Positions 3,996 to 11,048 are shown, numbered from the stretch's first letter. The stretch: 15,492 nucleotides of DNA from Synechococcales cyanobacterium (GCA_035285565.1 JAYKGX010000423.1:1-15492); one strand, 5' to 3'. Made by a program: numbers and translations. Notes: generated from the letters alone by a model not told the origin.

Positions 3996-5279
3996 ATGTT
4001 GAGTTGGGATAGCAGTTCCAGCATTGCTCGGATGCAGCGGGAGCGGGCTTGGGTAGAGGTAGATGAAGGGGCGATCGCCCATAATGTCCAACAAATTCGC
4101 CGCATTCTACAGCCGAAAACTGACTTGATGACCGTGGTCAAAGCTGATGCTTATGGTCATGGTTCTGTGAACGTAGCGCGGACGGCTCTGCAAGCGGGGG
4201 CAACTTGGTTGGGGGTGGCAACCATCCCGGAAGGCATTGAACTTCGAGAAGCGGGGATTGAAGCGCCGATTCTCATCCTGGGGGCAACCCATCTGCCGGA
4301 ACAGATTCGCACCCTCCTGCGCTGGCGGCTGCAACCGACGCTCTGTACGCCCAAGCAGACCATGGTGTTTGCTGAAACGATGGCAGAATGCAAATCCGAT
4401 GCCGACTGGGCGGTGGGAGATTGGGCCGTGGGAGACCGAGCGGGTGGAGAGTGGGAGCGCGATCGCCCCATTTTACCAGTGCATTTGAAGCTGGATACGG
4501 GCATGACCCGGTTGGGAACTTCTTGGGAACAGGGTGAAGACTTTATCAAATTGGTGCAACGGCTGCCCAATTTGGCACTGGCGAGCATCTATTCTCACTT
4601 TGCTACAGCGGATGAATTGGATCAAACGACCCTGCGATCGCAACAGCAACGTTTTGAGTCTGTTTTGCGATCGGTGGGTTTGTTGACTCCGCAAGCTCGC
4701 CAGACCCGTGGACCTAAATTGCATTTTGCCAATTCTGCTGCCACCTTAACCGATCGCAATCTGCACTATGACCTGGTGCGGACGGGGTTAATCACCTATG
4801 GAATTTATCCGGCTGAACATTTACGTCATTGCCTATCCCTTCAGCCCGCTATGCAGGTGAAAGCCCGCGTTACGCAAGTGAAAACCATTGCGGCTGGAAC
4901 TGGGGTCAGCTACGGTCATCGCTTTGTGAGCGATCGTGAGATGCAAGTAGCCGTAATTGGAATTGGTTATGCGGACGGTGTGCCAAGAAACTTATCTAAT
5001 CAAATGGAAGTTCTCATCCGTGGGCAACGGGTGCGACAAATTGGTGCGATTACGATGGATCAAATTATGTTGGATGTGAGTGCGATCGATCATTTACAAG
5101 AAGGAGAAGTAGTAACAGTCCTTGGTAAAAGTGGCGATCAGCAAATTACAGCCGATGATTGGGCACAACAACTGGGCACCATTTCTTGGGAAATTCTCTG
5201 CGGGTTCAAACATCGCTTACCTCGGGTGATGGTACGGCGATCGCTTGTTAAAGAACCGATCAGTTCCCAAATGCAATAG
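3996..5279 (+). CDS. alr: Alanine racemase
   Basis: PLP-lysine motif VVKADAYGHG, plus GIGYADG and the MDQ catalytic-Tyr region. The start was chosen at ATG 3996, which has AGGAG 7 nt upstream. The ORF-track start at 3849 is a TTG. The protein contains a roughly 35-aa insertion with the tandem DWAVGDWAVGD. Confidence 0.85.
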   Translation: MLSWDSSSSIARMQRERAWVEVDEGAIAHNVQQIRRILQPKTDLMTVVKADAYGHGSVNVARTALQAGATWLGVATIPEGIELREAGIEAPILILGATHLPEQIRTLLRWRLQPTLCTPKQTMVFAETMAECKSDADWAVGDWAVGDRAGGEWERDRPILPVHLKLDTGMTRLGTSWEQGEDFIKLVQRLPNLALASIYSHFATADELDQTTLRSQQQRFESVLRSVGLLTPQARQTRGPKLHFANSAATLTDRNLHYDLVRTGLITYGIYPAEHLRHCLSLQPAMQVKARVTQVKTIAAGTGVSYGHRFVSDREMQVAVIGIGYADGVPRNLSNQMEVLIRGQRVRQIGAITMDQIMLDVSAIDHLQEGEVVTVLGKSGDQQITADDWAQQLGTISWEILCGFKHRLPRVMVRRSLVKEPISSQMQ

Positions 5280-5509
5280 GTATCAAATGCAATAGGCATC
5301 ATGCCTGGGTATTTGAAGGGCGAATACAGAGAAGGGGGATAGGGAGATAGTCAATCCCTAATTCCCACCTTCCCAGGATTTACAGCCGTTTTTAGATCAA
5401 TAAGCCACGTCCCCCCTCCCCCCCTCTCCTCATTCAAAATGTGTTGCACCCAACTAAAAATTGCTGTAAGTTAACCGACGACTGAAACCAGAGAGACAGA
5501 AACTAGAGA

Positions 5510-7717
5510 TTAAGTCTGTTCCGGTTTTGGTAAGTCGTTCACGATCGAGTCTACTTTCATCACTCCGTTTTGCTTGGCTAGAGTGGAGGCTTGGGTGGAG
5601 GTTTGGGTGGAGGGTGGCTGGGCTGGGCTGGTGGGGGGCTTGGATTTGGGCATCCCTAAGGAGGAAATTCCCGTGTTGCCCGTTTGCCCTTGGGTTTGGT
5701 TCCACAAAATCATGGAGAGCAAGCCATCGACCAAGCCGGAACCGTTGCCATTCTGCCCCACCAAAATATCGGGAATCAACCGCACATTGCGATCGCCGAT
5801 AATCTGCATCAACTGCATGGCCGTATACCCCTGAGAACCCAGTGCTCGCACCCCGGCTTGATAGCTATCTGCCTTAGCTTGCCCGATCGCCCGGACGGCA
5901 TCAGCTTCCCCAGCAGCTCGTAATTTTGTGGCTTCGGCTTCTCCGCCCGCCTGCTTGACTTGGGAGTTGGCCTGCAGTTCGGCAATACTGACGTTTTGTT
6001 CTGCCCGCACGAGATCCTGCTGAATTTCTGCCAGAGCCGTTTCCCGCACCAGTTGCTGCCGCTGAGTTTGTGCCAGTTGTTGTATTTCGTAGGTTTTGCG
6101 TTGTTCCTCAGCAATTTTCCGGTCTGTTTGAGTTTGCATTAACGAGGTGGGTGGCTGAATATCTCCGATCAGGGTATCGATCGCTTGCACATCATAGCTG
6201 CGGAGTGCCAGTTTGATGTAGTCTGCCCCTTCGGATTGGCGTTCGCTGCGGGCACTGAGGAAATCGAGGACGGTGGAATCCTGCGCCGAGTTGCGGAAAT
6301 AGTTGCCGATCGTTGGCTCTAGGACGTGATCGACTAAGTTTTGCATCGAACCCACGCGTGAAATCACCTTCGGCGCATCCAAGGCTCCCACATGGATAAT
6401 CTGCGCCACTTCCAAGTCAAAGGCAAAGCCATCCCGCGATCGCACCGTTAGGGAAGCAAGTTTTGCATCGTAGTTATGGCGTTCCGTCCGGCTAGACCAG
6501 TTCAGGACAATATTAGTGGTGGGCACCAGTTCCACCTTCATGACACGGGTATTGATGGGATGCTTGCCGGGGTAGAGCGGTTCAGTCCATACGCCTTTGT
6601 GCCCTGGGTACACCAGATCGCCATGGGTAAAGGATTCGCCACTCACGTCCTGATGTTCTTTGCCAACGTAGGAAATCACCACCCCGACGTAACCGATCGG
6701 CACTTCTGTCATGGGCACTTGTTCTACCTGCACCAGCCAAGGGTTGAGGTTCCAAGACCCCGAGAGCAGAATTTGTTCCTGTAAGCCCCGTCGCCCGCCC
6801 GCTTCGATGAATTTTTGTCCGTTTTGGAAGTTGTTGTGTCCGGCGATCGTTCCCCCAGCAATTTCTCCAGCTTCGATCGGTTTGCCATCCAAAGTGGTGA
6901 CAATGCCGACTTTATCGGGACGGACGGTATGCACCATCAACTGATCTGCCGCCATTCCTTGTTTCGTGGCTTGATCAGCGGTAATCACTTTGAACAGGGC
7001 TGTGTTGATCCGGTAGGTTCCGGCGGTGAGAAAGCCCATCTGTCGTCCCTTTTCGCCCCCTTGAGTTAGGAACTTACGAGCATCTTGGAAGTGATCACAA
7101 TCCACGATCCGACCCAGAATGCGATCGGGGGGAATGGCGCGACCATCATTGGCGACGAGGAGAGCAATTTGCCCTTGAGGCACGACGACCACGGGTTCCT
7201 TGCGAACAGAATATTGCCAAGGCCAGTAACCCCAGTGCCAACCCGGCGCTAAAACATCGGCTTGATAGCCTGCTTCCCCATTCAGGGCAATGAGCCGACC
7301 CGCTGTCAATTGTTTCCCGGCGAAGGAGACTTTTTTCACCACAATGCCAACTTCGCGTTCACTGATCACCACCAGACCTGCCCCGACGATGACGGCTAGA
7401 CTACCACCCAGCAACATCAGCGGAATTAAACCCCAACTGGGCAAGAAGGTATCATCCATCACGGCTGCAAGGGGCTGCGTCATCTGATGTTGACTGAGGG
7501 GAGAAACCGCAGAGGCAGAACCTTCAGGCAGTGATCCGATAGGCATCGTGGCGGCCAGGAAAGAGGACGATCGCTCTAGGGTTGGCTGGCTGGCGGAACT
7601 GGCAGCGATCGGCTGGGCTGTTGCCGGAGTCAGGAATCCAAACGAAGCGATCGCGGATGAAACCGACGCTAAAGCCGCTAAACGAATAGCCTGCGACACC
7701 TTATTCAAAGTCTTCAT
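5510..7717 (-). CDS. Flotillin / SPFH (band-7) family membrane protein with N-terminal signal-like and TM segments
   Basis: 735 aa. The N-terminus is MKTLNKVSQAIRLAALASVSSAIASFGF, followed by a hydrophobic TM segment (LIPLMLLGGSLAVIVGAGLVVI) and an SPFH core. The C-terminus has coiled-coil Ala/Glu/Gln-rich flotillin repeats (QLAQTQRQQLV...EAEATKLRAAGEADAVRA). Confidence 0.85.
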   Translation of the reverse strand: MKTLNKVSQAIRLAALASVSSAIASFGFLTPATAQPIAASSASQPTLERSSSFLAATMPIGSLPEGSASAVSPLSQHQMTQPLAAVMDDTFLPSWGLIPLMLLGGSLAVIVGAGLVVISEREVGIVVKKVSFAGKQLTAGRLIALNGEAGYQADVLAPGWHWGYWPWQYSVRKEPVVVVPQGQIALLVANDGRAIPPDRILGRIVDCDHFQDARKFLTQGGEKGRQMGFLTAGTYRINTALFKVITADQATKQGMAADQLMVHTVRPDKVGIVTTLDGKPIEAGEIAGGTIAGHNNFQNGQKFIEAGGRRGLQEQILLSGSWNLNPWLVQVEQVPMTEVPIGYVGVVISYVGKEHQDVSGESFTHGDLVYPGHKGVWTEPLYPGKHPINTRVMKVELVPTTNIVLNWSSRTERHNYDAKLASLTVRSRDGFAFDLEVAQIIHVGALDAPKVISRVGSMQNLVDHVLEPTIGNYFRNSAQDSTVLDFLSARSERQSEGADYIKLALRSYDVQAIDTLIGDIQPPTSLMQTQTDRKIAEEQRKTYEIQQLAQTQRQQLVRETALAEIQQDLVRAEQNVSIAELQANSQVKQAGGEAEATKLRAAGEADAVRAIGQAKADSYQAGVRALGSQGYTAMQLMQIIGDRNVRLIPDILVGQNGNGSGLVDGLLSMILWNQTQGQTGNTGISSLGMPKSKPPTSPAQPPSTQTSTQASTLAKQNGVMKVDSIVNDLPKPEQT

Positions 7718-7990
7718 AGAAGCGTAAAACTCAGGGTTGAAGAAAAGATTTGAAGAGAATCAATCCACCCTAGCGATGCCGATTTGGGATTCTGCCGATC
7801 TTGCAACGTAATTTCACAAAGGGTCTAAACCCAGCATTTTGATCGGAGGTCAGCAACCCCTAACGGATCGGTTACTAGTGGGATTAGCACTCAACTACCG
7901 ATCGCCCTATTCTGATTCCGGAAAACTCGCTCAAAATTTTTTGGTCCGCATTATGATTCTGCTCTGCGGTTCTGCCCCAAGCTAGTCTGT

Positions 7991-8037
7991 AGGCTTGGGC
8001 ACTCTAGGCTTGGATACTCCTCAGGCTTGGGCACTCT
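7991..8037. repeat. Three 15-bp direct repeats AGGCTTGGGCACTCT / AGGCTTGGATACTCC / AGGCTTGGGCACTCT
   Basis: Copies at 7991-8005, 8006-8020 and 8023-8037. They lie about 275-320 bp upstream of the flotillin start (the gene is on the minus strand). This looks like a possible transcription-factor binding array. Confidence 0.6.
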
Positions 8038-8100
8038 TTCCGATCGTTTTGCCCATTACCCAAATAGCATCTGAATCTTCTGCATCTAATGAATATTTTT

Positions 8101-8129
8101 GGACACAATATGTTGCACACAATATGTCC
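8101..8129. repeat. Direct repeat ACACAATATGT x2 bracketed by inverted GGACA/TGTCC
   Basis: ggacacaatatgttgcacacaatatgtcc is seen directly. It lies next to a 6-bp GTGGGG/CCCCAC hairpin (8130-8157), just downstream of the DUF2949-like gene on the minus strand. Confidence 0.5.
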
Positions 8130-8158
8130 GTGGGGGGCGATCGATTGCCAACCCCACC

Positions 8159-8368
8159 CTAACTTAATGAACCAACACTATCTAGCCAATCAAAAATCTG
8201 CTCCAACTGGTTCAAGGAAATGAGTCCATAACGCCAGAGAGTCATGGGTAACAGACTAGGGGTCTGCTCTGAGTGCTGTAGTGCCAGCCGGATTGAATCT
8301 GACGGTAGACCCATCTCCTCTCGGAGGAAATGAATCAATGGATGGTTAAGTAATTCCATAGGTCGCAC
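8159..8368 (-). CDS. Small conserved cyanobacterial protein, DUF2949-like
   Basis: 69 aa with a GTG start; an internal ATG at 8359 gives 66 aa. The ...PLIHFLREEMGLPSDSIRLALQH...LPMTLWRYGLISLNQLEQIFDWL pattern resembles the roughly 70-aa DUF2949 family as I remember it. Confidence 0.55.
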   Translation of the reverse strand: MRPMELLNHPLIHFLREEMGLPSDSIRLALQHSEQTPSLLPMTLWRYGLISLNQLEQIFDWLDSVGSLS

Positions 8369-8868
8369 CCCTGTCCCAATTCATGTTGGGATACGGAACA
8401 ATAAGTAATACCAGTAGACGATGCACCTGAAAACAACTGTCACCCAAAAGATTGAAAGCAGAAATAATCAAGACAGTGAATCAAAACGAGCAAAATCAAG
8501 GCAACAGGTTCAAATTTAGCCAGGAACTCACCAAGGGACGCAATAAAAGCCCTGAAGACCAACAGGTTGGTATTGGGACTTGGTATTGGTACGATTTGCC
8601 CCACCTGTTTGGTTTTGTCTGTTGTTTACAGCACTGAAACTGAAAATTCTCCAGAACCTTTGTGATATTTTGCCTCAACTTTTTCAATTTGTCTCTTTTT
8701 TTTGATTTTCCTTAGATTTGCTTAAAGCGATCGCTGCGCTGAATCAGTAGAAATAACTATTTCCCCTTCGCTGAGGGCAATGCTCCAGTCAGAGGGTAGG
8801 TCTTTTTTTGCAGGTCTTTTGCAGGTATTTTGGGTGTAGCAACTGCCCTATCGTCAAATGGTTTCAGT

Positions 8869-9810
8869 ATGTCGTCCCCCCAGTCTTCTCCTCCCTCTCA
8901 GCGTACTTCGGTATTCCAGTCCTTTTGGCGGAAACTGACTGCCCGGATTCGTAGTCTGTTCCATCGTCTCTTCCGTTGCTCTAGGCAGATGAATCCTATG
9001 ACTACTTTGACAGCGGTTCCCGCCGATCGCTACTTGCCCCCGCCCGCAACCCGACAAGCTGCCGAAGCGGCGATCGCACTGTTTGAGCAATCTCCTCAAG
9101 CGGGAGTCTGGCCGTTTCTCGACAAAACGACCTTGGTGGCAGAATTACGCGATCGGGTTCACAATCCCTTTCAGGTGAACCAAGGCGGACAGCCCTTTTG
9201 TGGCCCAGCGGTGGTGCTGTTTGAGCTGGTTCGCACGCAACCTGTGAAATACGTGCAATTGTGCGAAAGCTTGTTTCAAACGGGCAAATTTCAGGGTAAG
9301 ACCCAAACGATCGTGGCTTCGGAGAAACTGCGTCGTGCCAGCCGGGGCAATCTGCTCATGAGCCAGGTAGATTGGATGGTGTTAGCCACCCTGCGGGAAT
9401 CTGAGAACCTGCTTTTTCCTGTAGAACCGAATGCCCCCGACCTGATTCGCAATCTAGCAGGCATGACCAAATCCTGGGAACTCATCGGCTGGATCGAAGA
9501 ACTGCTGGGCTACAGCCAGGTTAAATACCATCCCGCTTACCTCTTCAATGATCTGAATGCCCTCCAAGCAGCCAACCAAACCCTCCAAGCGGGCGGTATC
9601 GCGATCGCCCTGATCACCGCCGAAACCCTGCTACAAAATAAACCCATGCCTCCCCTGCCCACCCACTGGATTGGCCTCTTAGGGGGAATTCAGATCGATC
9701 GTCGCCAAGTCCATTGCGATCTCTACACCTGGTCCCAAAAATTAACCCTCACTACAGATATTGAAAGTTTCAAAAAATACTTCTGGCTTACGATTACTGC
9801 ACAGCCTTGA
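8869..9810 (+). CDS. Hypothetical protein with a papain-fold (peptidase C39-like) Cys/His signature
   Basis: The 8830-9810 ORF starts with TTG. The first ATG is at 8869 (MSSPQ...) and the next at 8989 (MNPM...). The sequence has Q-x5-C in NQGGQPFCGPAVVL, comparable to C39 QxxxxDCGxAAL, and a downstream HWIGLLGG His motif about 155 aa later, followed by Asp residues. Confidence 0.55.
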   Translation: MSSPQSSPPSQRTSVFQSFWRKLTARIRSLFHRLFRCSRQMNPMTTLTAVPADRYLPPPATRQAAEAAIALFEQSPQAGVWPFLDKTTLVAELRDRVHNPFQVNQGGQPFCGPAVVLFELVRTQPVKYVQLCESLFQTGKFQGKTQTIVASEKLRRASRGNLLMSQVDWMVLATLRESENLLFPVEPNAPDLIRNLAGMTKSWELIGWIEELLGYSQVKYHPAYLFNDLNALQAANQTLQAGGIAIALITAETLLQNKPMPPLPTHWIGLLGGIQIDRRQVHCDLYTWSQKLTLTTDIESFKKYFWLTITAQP

Positions 9811-9944
9811 CCTAACCCGATCGCTGCGTAGCAGCCCCGACGATTCAGGCATCCACGAATTCCACCGATCGAACAGGTTCCAACCCACTCCCTTGGGCTA
9901 TGATCTGAGGGGCATTCTTAGATTCTTAAGATATTTGGCAGCAT

Positions 9945-11048
9945 ATGACGGTGCCCTTCGAGCTAGAAACCCCCCCTCTTTCTGATGCGATCGACCTTCC
10001 CCCCGGAGTTCAGCCCGAGGTCACACCTGCAACGCCATCCGTCCCATCCGATGCAGAAGCGATCGCCCCAAAGTCAGTGGCAACAGAGCCAGTGGCAACA
10101 GAGCCAGTGGCAACAGAGTCAAGCATGACAGAGTCAAGCATGACAGAGTCAGTGGCAACAGAGTCAAGCATGACGGAACAAACAATCTCTGAACCCATCA
10201 TGACGGACCAGATCATGACCGAGCAGATCATGACCGAGCAGATCATGACAGACCAGATTATGGCAGACGATGGGGCTGGCTCCGGGGGATCTGATACGCC
10301 TTTCTCCGGTGGCACCGACGGCTTTGGTTCAGAAGAAGAGGAGGATCTTGATGATGTGGAAATGTCTCTCTTCGATCACCTAGAAGAACTGCGGCAGCGG
10401 ATCTTTTATTCCTTAATTGCCGCAGGGGTTGGGATTGTTGGTTGCTTTACCCAAGTTCGACCGATCGTTGCATTGCTGGAACAACCTGCCCAAGGGGTGA
10501 AATTCCTACAACTGTCGCCCGGTGAATTTTTCTTCGTTTCAGTCAAAACAGCGGGTTATGCAGGGCTTCTCCTGTCTGCCCCCTTCATCCTGTATCAGAT
10601 TATTGCCTTCGTCACCCCCGGTCTCACCCGACGGGAAAAACGATTTTTGGCTCCGATCGTCCTGGGTTCCAGTGTGCTCTTCCTGGCAGGACTGTTCTTT
10701 TCCTACATTGCCCTTATTCCCGCTGCGCTGAATTTCTTCGTTTCCTATGGCGGGGATGTCGTTGAACAGGCTTGGTCGATCGATCGCTATTTTGAATTTG
10801 TGCTACTGCTGATGTTTAGTACGGGCATTGCCTTCCAAATCCCGATCGTGCAAATGCTGCTGGGCTTGCTGGGCCTCGTCTCCTCGCAGCAAATGCTTTC
10901 TGGCTGGCGTGTGGTACTGGTTGGGGCGGCGGTTGCAGGAGCTATTCTCACCCCTTCAACGGATCCGCTAACGCAGAGTTTGTTAGGAGGAGCCGTCGTT
11001 GCCCTCTACTTTGCAGGGATTGGACTCGTTCGGCTGTTAGGAAAATAA
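9945..11048 (+). CDS. tatC: Sec-independent protein translocase subunit TatC with a roughly 140-aa repetitive acidic N-terminal extension
   Basis: The C-terminal roughly 230 aa is a typical six-TM TatC ([21 protein letters not shown]..., [11 protein letters not shown]...). The N-terminus carries pentapeptide repeats VATEP/SMTES/IMTEQ. An in-frame internal ATG at [11 protein letters not shown] would give a conventional-length TatC. Confidence 0.85.
10076..10270 (+). repeat. Thirteen tandem 15-bp (5-codon) repeats inside the 5' part of tatC
   Basis: Units gtggcaacagagcca (x2), gtggcaacagagtca (x2), agcatgacagagtca (x2), agcatgacggaacaa, acaatctctgaaccc, atcatgacggaccag, atcatgaccgagcag (x2), atcatgacagaccag and attatggcagacgat. 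The spurious antisense ORF 10010-10315 is a by-product of these repeats. Confidence 0.8.

Follow-up and report, generated by a model that had tools for sequence, protein, structure and literature searches.

A tatC reading frame in the 15,492-nucleotide stretch of cyanobacterial DNA analyzed here (the window) contains a run of short tandem repeats in its 5' part, and the locus thereby raises the question of whether TatC in this lineage carries a repetitive amino-terminal extension or whether the repeats form part of an untranslated leader. The protein deposited at NCBI for this gene (P0001, MEB3295140.1) is 228 residues long and starts at the ATG at 10362, beyond the repeats. A related question is whether the array is an actively varying element, an artifact of assembly or an expanded spacer.

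The tatC gene and its surroundings

The full-length tatC open reading frame, as given by the ORF list and its translation, occupies 9945-11048 on the plus strand and encodes 367 residues followed by a stop codon. The carboxy-terminal part is matched by the TatC family models, with 218.4 bits (cut-off 25.1) for Pfam PF00902 over residues 144-347 and 260.9 bits (cut-off 132.7) for NCBIfam TIGR00945 over residues 142-355, position 1 of the latter model aligning to residue 142. In an AlphaFold2 model, the core (10362-11045, plus strand) contains six long helices, at residues 130-182, 192-223, 229-276, 279-308, 314-335 and 341-365, with pLDDT values of 75-89, and residues 130-365 are thereby predicted to have the six-helix architecture that defines the family.

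An in-frame TAA stop lies five codons 5' of the ATG at 9945, which is the first possible start thereafter. Alignment with a related locus (L023, described below) reveals a conserved non-coding block at 9895-9944 (plus strand) that is a putative promoter and short 5' untranslated region. A -10-like TATGAT is found at 9899-9904, about 40 nt 5' of the ATG, and the alignment conserves GGCTAT(G/C)AT..AGGGG.ATT.TT and TTGGCAGC.TATGAC upstream of and at the start codon, whose context is TTGGCAGCNTATGAC. Because a scan for consensus promoters and terminators across 9600-10450 found nothing, we can only infer a promoter within 9895-9944. No Shine-Dalgarno-like sequence precedes the ATG at 9945.

The neighboring genes have Pfam matches to triose-phosphate isomerase, alanine racemase, a Band_7 protein, Sua5/YrdC, ClpP and a Ser/Thr kinase. 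The gene directly upstream of tatC (8830-9810, plus strand) has no Pfam or NCBIfam match; it is syntenic with tatC in two other loci (L022 and L023), with 63% identity that begins at residue 59, and is not beside tatC in Alkalinema (L021). The TTG listed as its start probably lies too far 5'. A Pfam scan of the nine window ORFs of at least 196 residues detected no homolog of TatA/B, the partner proteins of TatC; according to one table in PMC3827258 ('C <-> A2'), cyanobacterial tatA genes are usually unlinked from tatC. Five tRNA genes (Asp-GTC, Gln-TTG, Leu-TAA, Leu-TAG and Met-CAT) are packed into 500 bp at 958-1456 on the plus strand, four of them identified by Rfam and the fifth by ARAGORN; the Rfam scan reported these four tRNAs only, and nothing within the tatC tail region. 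Other repeats are also present in the window, namely several short tandem repeats with periods of 5-16, clustered at 5268-5689 at the 3' end of the Band_7 gene (minus strand) and past it, and an intergenic 15-bp repeat of 3.1 copies at 7990-8037, upstream of that gene. The HIP1 palindrome GCGATCGC occurs 22 times in the window, against an expectation of 0.23.

Anatomy of the 15-bp array

Thirteen 15-bp units placed head to tail make up the array, which spans 10074-10268 and is in frame with the tatC ORF; this confirms the thirteen in-frame repeats and the long amino-terminal TatC extension of a preliminary description of this locus. With TRF the array comes out as three adjoining stretches of period 15, at 10075-10118 (100% matches), 10113-10174 (80%) and 10197-10262 (90%), and a repeat search recovered 11 copies in register with a spacing of 15. 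The same description had treated all of 9945-10380 as the repeat extension; the whole N-terminal tail is indeed found there, but just 65 of its 139 residues come from the repeats.

The tail, which is entirely on the plus strand, begins with the motif MTVPFELET (9945-9971), the counterpart of a homolog consensus MT[AV]PSELET. A Pro/Val/Ser/Ala-rich pre-repeat tail follows (9972-10073), in which the codon-usage log-ratio is positive in the ORF frame only; a copy of HIP1 is found within it at 10059-10066, 8 bp upstream of the array. Units 1-7 (10074-10178) interleave four members of a sub-family A ([S/P]VATE) with three of a sub-family B (SSMTE). Unit 8 (10179-10193; QTISE) is degenerate, with 4-8 of 15 positions in agreement with the other units, and it retains the register and the terminal Glu. 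Units 9-13 (10194-10268), as delimited by TRF and unit comparison, make up a sub-family C ([P/Q]IM[T/A][D/E]). The tail then continues as a Gly/Ser-rich segment and an acidic run that ends at an invariant Glu139 (10269-10361), and the next codon is that of Met140 (10362-10364), which is the start codon annotated by NCBI and an invariant internal residue in the homologs.

Comparison of the units shows that the array is layered. Identity within a sub-family is 13-15 of 15 positions for A, 13-15 for B and 10-15 for C, and between sub-families only 4-11 of 15, so that an earlier characterization of the repeats as perfect to near-perfect applies inside the sub-families and breaks down between them. 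Every unit conforms to xxx xxx xxx [A/T/G]CN GAN in the DNA and to x-x-x-[T/A/S]-[E/D] in the protein. There are four identical pairs of units (1=2, 3=4, 9=10 and 0=5, in a numbering that includes a unit 0), at most three neighboring units are identical, and no word longer than the maximum of 29 bp is repeated exactly. For each sub-family unit the window contains 3-4 matches against 0.06 expected, none of them outside the array, which rules out chance. The newest copies must be recent because they are identical, and to that extent the repeats are as young as had been proposed. The three diverged sub-families, however, point to slow turnover, and in combination with the identical pairs they indicate that the array records both old and recent rounds of duplication rather than a single burst.

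An unusually long acidic tail

The tail is about 140 residues long (139 before Met140, or 141 by the measure used for homologs), roughly three times the cyanobacterial norm. Measured from the N-terminal motif up to LFDHLEELR, homolog tails (n=122) range from 32 to 64 residues with a median of 49, and none of the 115 motif-bearing homologs has a tail of 65 residues or more, which places the window outside the range of the family. Even the array-free tail, at about 75 residues, is longer than that of any of these 115. With 31 Asp and Glu residues against a single Lys or Arg, the tail has a net charge of -30, whereas homolog tails run from -6 to -18 (median -13); the acidic, Thr/Glu-rich character ascribed to it at the outset is thus upheld.

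In the AlphaFold2 prediction, which used a 30-sequence alignment, residues 1-130 have pLDDT values of 42-56, compared with 75-89 for the core, and the only helix in the tail (residues 89-102, within sub-family C) is of low confidence. This prediction is consistent with a disordered tail. Among the cyanobacterial proteins the conserved nonapeptide MT[AV]PSELET is found at the extreme N-terminus, and a variable acidic linker lies between it and the core. A literature search returned nothing specific on cyanobacterial TatC tails and no description of the nonapeptide.

A sister lineage with a different long tail

Clustering at 90% identity groups P0001 with a single other protein, P0274, which is 381 residues long. 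Both JGI and Logan called it at full length, the contigs numbering seven and the samples four (JGI 3300081957 and Logan SRR326 runs; loci L023-L026). The P0274 core is 90% identical to that of the window TatC, and the two loci share the upstream gene order Band_7, DUF2949, unknown protein and tatC. The P0274 tail, which begins MTVPSDLEQ, is 153 residues long with a net charge of -40; its DNA is open in this frame only (just 0.125% of shuffles lack a stop) and is identical in the four samples. Several CGATCG cores are present in the DNA of this tail.

Between the two lineages, most changes in the alignable blocks of the tail are synonymous, and its middle does not align at the DNA level. Across the core, the codons differ by 108 synonymous and 14 non-synonymous changes. 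A 10-codon block common to both tails (SGGTDGFG plus two) shows five synonymous differences and one non-synonymous, the four DDVE codons show two and none, and the MTVP..LE codons two and two. The flanking DNA, including some intergenic stretches, is 77-80% identical between the window and L023, and blastn aligned the whole syntenic block of 5637-11047 except for the tail itself (window 9945-10303 versus L023 8001-8392). The P0274 tail lacks the 15-bp array and has instead a 12-bp repeat of 2.7 copies along with two copies of EPTA, the latter at an aligned position where the window has three copies of EPVAT. The 15-bp amplification is thus specific to the lineage of the window. Part of the lengthening predates the split between the lineages, judging from the roughly 75-residue length of the array-free tail and the Gly/Ser-rich block common to the sister.

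Where translation begins

The preliminary description had left open whether the tail is translated, and had taken the internal ATG to give a conventional TatC. The second idea fails: a start at that codon would delete a tail possessed by all 122 close relatives. An MT[AV]PSELET-type motif (in its fuller form M-T-[AVP]-P-S-[EDN]-L-E-T) is present in 115 of these 122 closest cyanobacterial homologs, at residue 1 in 105 of them. At the other end of the tail, the homologs have a consensus D-D-[VL]-E-M-S ahead of LFDHLEELR, to which the window conforms; the Glu and Met of this junction (positions -3 and -2 before the core, preceded by D-D-[VL]) are invariant in 122 of 122 homologs, which argues that Met140 is an internal residue rather than a start. 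In the 30-sequence alignment the window protein fits its homologs at both ends of the tail, and the repeat block stands out as a single large insertion.

Properties of the DNA point in the same direction. With a codon-usage log-ratio derived from the genes of the window itself, the ORF frame scored +0.16 ahead of the repeats, a weak +0.08 within them and +0.31 behind them; values for other frames of the tail segments were no higher than +0.02 and mostly clearly negative, and intergenic DNA was negative in all six frames. Stop codons are absent from the tail in the ORF frame and number from one to nine in each of the other five. Among the minimal substitutions within sub-families, seven of 10 are at codon position 3 (five of them synonymous and one Asp/Glu), a bias with a binomial estimate against equal thirds of p ~0.02 from 10 events only. 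An antisense ORF at 10010-10315 (minus strand, 101 residues) was considered and rejected; it is open owing to the repeats, its codon scores are neutral or negative, and it is at odds with the plus-strand frame, which is conserved. The strongest line of evidence for translation of the tail is the sister lineage. Considered jointly, the N-terminal motif, the internal Met, the alignment, codon usage, the variation among the repeats and the sister tail make it very likely that translation starts at the ATG at 9945 and not at the internal ATG at 10362, and on the question left open the evidence favors a translated tail. The deposited 228-residue TatC would then probably lack 139 real residues, the true product being one of 367.

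The competing possibility, that translation starts at 10362 to give the 228-residue protein and that the repeats belong to a long 5' untranslated leader, was the choice of the NCBI pipeline. That choice may be explained by the TIGR00945 model, which begins at residue 142; the Pfam and TIGR00945 matches together begin at residues 142-144. A purine-rich GGAGG located 17 nt 5' of the ATG at 10362 means that some internal initiation is possible, but this sequence falls inside a run of Glu/Asp codons. Exclusive use of the internal start would also require that the conserved N-terminal motif coincide with the ATG at 9945, that the frame stay open for 139 codons here and 153 in the sister lineage, that codon usage favor that frame, and that blocks 5' of Met140 change mainly synonymously relative to the sister, all in a leader; in addition, Glu139 and Met140 are internal in each of 122 homologs, every one of which has 32-64 more residues upstream. 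We consider an internal start very improbable. A variation on this theme would use the nine in-frame ATGs of the array together with Met140 as alternative starts, producing a ladder of TatC isoforms with tails of varied length. ATG is indeed present in sub-families B and C, and an unrelated soil membrane protein starts with MTDQI repeats that span its start codon. However, no ribosome-binding-like sequence precedes any array ATG within the repeat units, every shorter isoform would lose the conserved N-terminal motif, and Met holds a fixed position in the pentapeptide just as the other residues do; such a ladder is scarcely credible.

Is the array variable, or an artifact?

Searches for the array elsewhere turned up no second assembly that carries it in the protein, genome or metagenome collections examined, and the exact 367-residue sequence is absent from a collection of 15 billion proteins. 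A protein search with the window tail found no related tail, only weak matches to TatC (E 0.25-5.2, 14-24% query coverage), and one with the sister tail had no matches. DNA pattern searches gave candidates that were set aside: two adjacent C units matched two unrelated Firmicutes loci among genome contigs, and a slightly shorter C-unit pattern matched 18 loci among metagenome contigs, with no tatC locus among them and with some encoding unrelated MTDQI-type repeats by construction of the pattern. Three loci surfaced only through their match to this search pattern. In two of these (L019:4685-4830 and L008:4458-4605, both minus strand), from soil metagenomes, an unrelated hydrophobic protein of 159 residues starts in 15-bp tandem repeats that span its start codon, and the third (L009:8515-8625, plus strand) has a shorter relative of that N-terminal repeat. 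A DNA alignment in which MAFFT compared the window to the loci of Alkalinema and P0004 was also discarded, in favor of the protein alignment, when the start was found to be mis-registered against ATGAC-containing repeats.

Could the array be a contingency-type locus, in which rapid changes in repeat number provide selected variation in TatC tail length between strains or within a population? The repeats are tandem and in frame with identical adjacent copies, and the tail, unalignable by blastn, has evolved faster than any other segment of the syntenic block. Contingency loci, however, have a long tract of identical units and act by shifting the reading frame or the spacing of a promoter, and the array does neither: identical neighbors number three at most, the longest exact repeat is 29 bp and the unit is five codons long, unlike in a locus of the classical kind, and a 15-bp unit inside a coding region provides no on/off switch of expression. 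The diverged sub-families imply slow turnover, the sister lineage lacks the array and has tail DNA that is identical in four samples, and the collections searched hold no second assembly of the window's lineage. Rapid, selected length variation is therefore an unlikely explanation. It is less likely still, indeed highly improbable, that the array or its copy number was created during metagenome assembly. The source is a short contig from an uncultured MAG, the copy number comes from this single metagenomic assembly, and tandem repeats are error-prone in assemblies of short reads. Against these concerns, the 29-bp longest exact repeat is shorter than usual assembly k-mers and reads, which makes collapse unlikely; the array is heterogeneous with its frame preserved, and a tail of similar overall length exists independently in the sister lineage.

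Origin and possible role of the tail

The best account of these observations, and one in which we place considerable confidence, is that tatC is translated from the ATG at 9945 and that slippage has driven an in-frame expansion of a weakly constrained, disordered acidic linker, which serves as a tolerated spacer. The tail keeps to the plan usual in cyanobacteria, with a conserved N-terminal nonapeptide, a variable acidic linker almost devoid of basic residues, and an invariant ..DD[VL]E-M-S junction with the core. Some lengthening of the linker would have occurred in the common ancestor with the P0274 lineage, and the rest would have come from successive in-frame tandem duplications of the 15-bp (five-codon) unit. 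From the head-to-tail, in-register arrangement of the array we infer that these duplications arose by replication slippage or unequal recombination, and they would have left behind three diverged sub-families and a few neighbors that are still identical.

TatC has a cytoplasmic N-terminus, which together with the first cytoplasmic loop forms the binding site for the twin-arginine signal peptide; work by Holzapfel et al. reportedly bears on this site. The product of the expansion would accordingly be a disordered leash, strongly anionic with its net charge of -30, at the translocase's cytoplasmic face, adjoining the signal-peptide binding region at the TatC N-terminus and first loop. Selection seems to target the composition of the tail, its reading frame and the motifs at either end rather than the sequence of the linker, and the repeats are for that reason most likely a tolerated expansion of a spacer. 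The array most likely makes that spacer longer while hardly affecting fitness, and is itself probably nearly neutral.

By analogy with the plant protein discussed below, the tail may also touch precursor proteins transiently, the N-terminal motif being perhaps an interacting element and the acidic linker its spacer. In a more ambitious 'peptide on a leash' proposal, the nonapeptide (MTAPSELET) would dock onto a partner or precursor, the polyanionic linker would be tuned by repeats, and such a tail would be the evolutionary source of the extension of plant cpTatC. This proposal is unlikely to hold. If it were true, the lineage of the window and that of P0274 would represent naturally long leashes, with tails at least as long as those of plants. 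Whatever the role of the tail, the feature is real, very probably coding and unusual in degree, and it is of a known kind, namely the in-frame repeat expansion of a disordered tail, here in a family noted for the long N-terminal extensions of its plant members. One practical consequence is a probable correction of the start codon, which would change the protein from 228 to 367 residues.

Comparison with other TatC proteins and related systems

An ordinary cyanobacterial TatC such as P0002, from Alkalinema sp. CACIAM 70d (284 residues, with a core 87% identical to that of the window), has the same tail plan, with an MT[AV]PSELET start, an acidic linker and the junction, but such tails are 32-64 residues long and have no 13-unit array. 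Other TatC proteins have short in-frame repeats of their own in the N-terminal tail, including four copies of SNLES in P0074, three of SNVDD in P0089, and ESAQA/ESVQA/EPAQA in P0207. P0118 and P0084 are also among the TatCs with repeats in this tail, and three copies of DLDA and two of DEVPD are found among the units. The repeats or long low-complexity tails of P0074, P0089, P0118, P0131, P0207 and P0257 differ from those of the window in having fewer units with unrelated sequences. Long low-complexity tails recur among diverse TatC representatives, one of them about 170 residues long and starting MDPSTLESE. The N-terminal tail of TatC is thus a recurrent site of in-frame expansion, and one small clade has stretched it to 140-155 residues.

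The array should be distinguished from the repeats of the Pfam pentapeptide-repeat proteins, which form a beta-helix from A[DN]LXX units. The window motif is x-[VSI]-[AM]-T-[ED], in a segment predicted to be disordered, and it does not belong to that family; a Pfam scan of the full protein returned TatC only, with no pentapeptide-repeat profile.

A further parallel is with the chloroplast protein of plants. Pea cpTatC has a stromal N-terminal extension of 70-100 residues that crosslinks to the precursor's mature domain, along the N-proximal and middle parts of the extension and not beside the first stromal domain; the function of the extension was described as unsettled and prokaryotic TatC as devoid of such extensions (bioRxiv 10.1101/2024.11.24.625085). 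The predicted cyanobacterial tails contradict the latter description: long N-terminal extensions of TatC would not be confined to plants, an acidic tail being encoded in all 122 relatives, with the motif in 115. Plant cpTatC and the window protein both have a long soluble extension that would lie on the cis side of the membrane, of 70-100 residues in plants and of 139 before Met140 in the window. In plant cpTatC (P0128, P0130) the extension ends in ..DD.EM[ST]IFDHLEELR, and the DD.EM junction is visibly common to the window and these proteins (P0128-P0130); beyond the junction the plant extension has no similarity apparent by eye, and it is not built of tandem pentapeptides. The cyanobacterial tail would thus provide a bacterial system for genetic tests of the unexplained role of the cpTatC extension.
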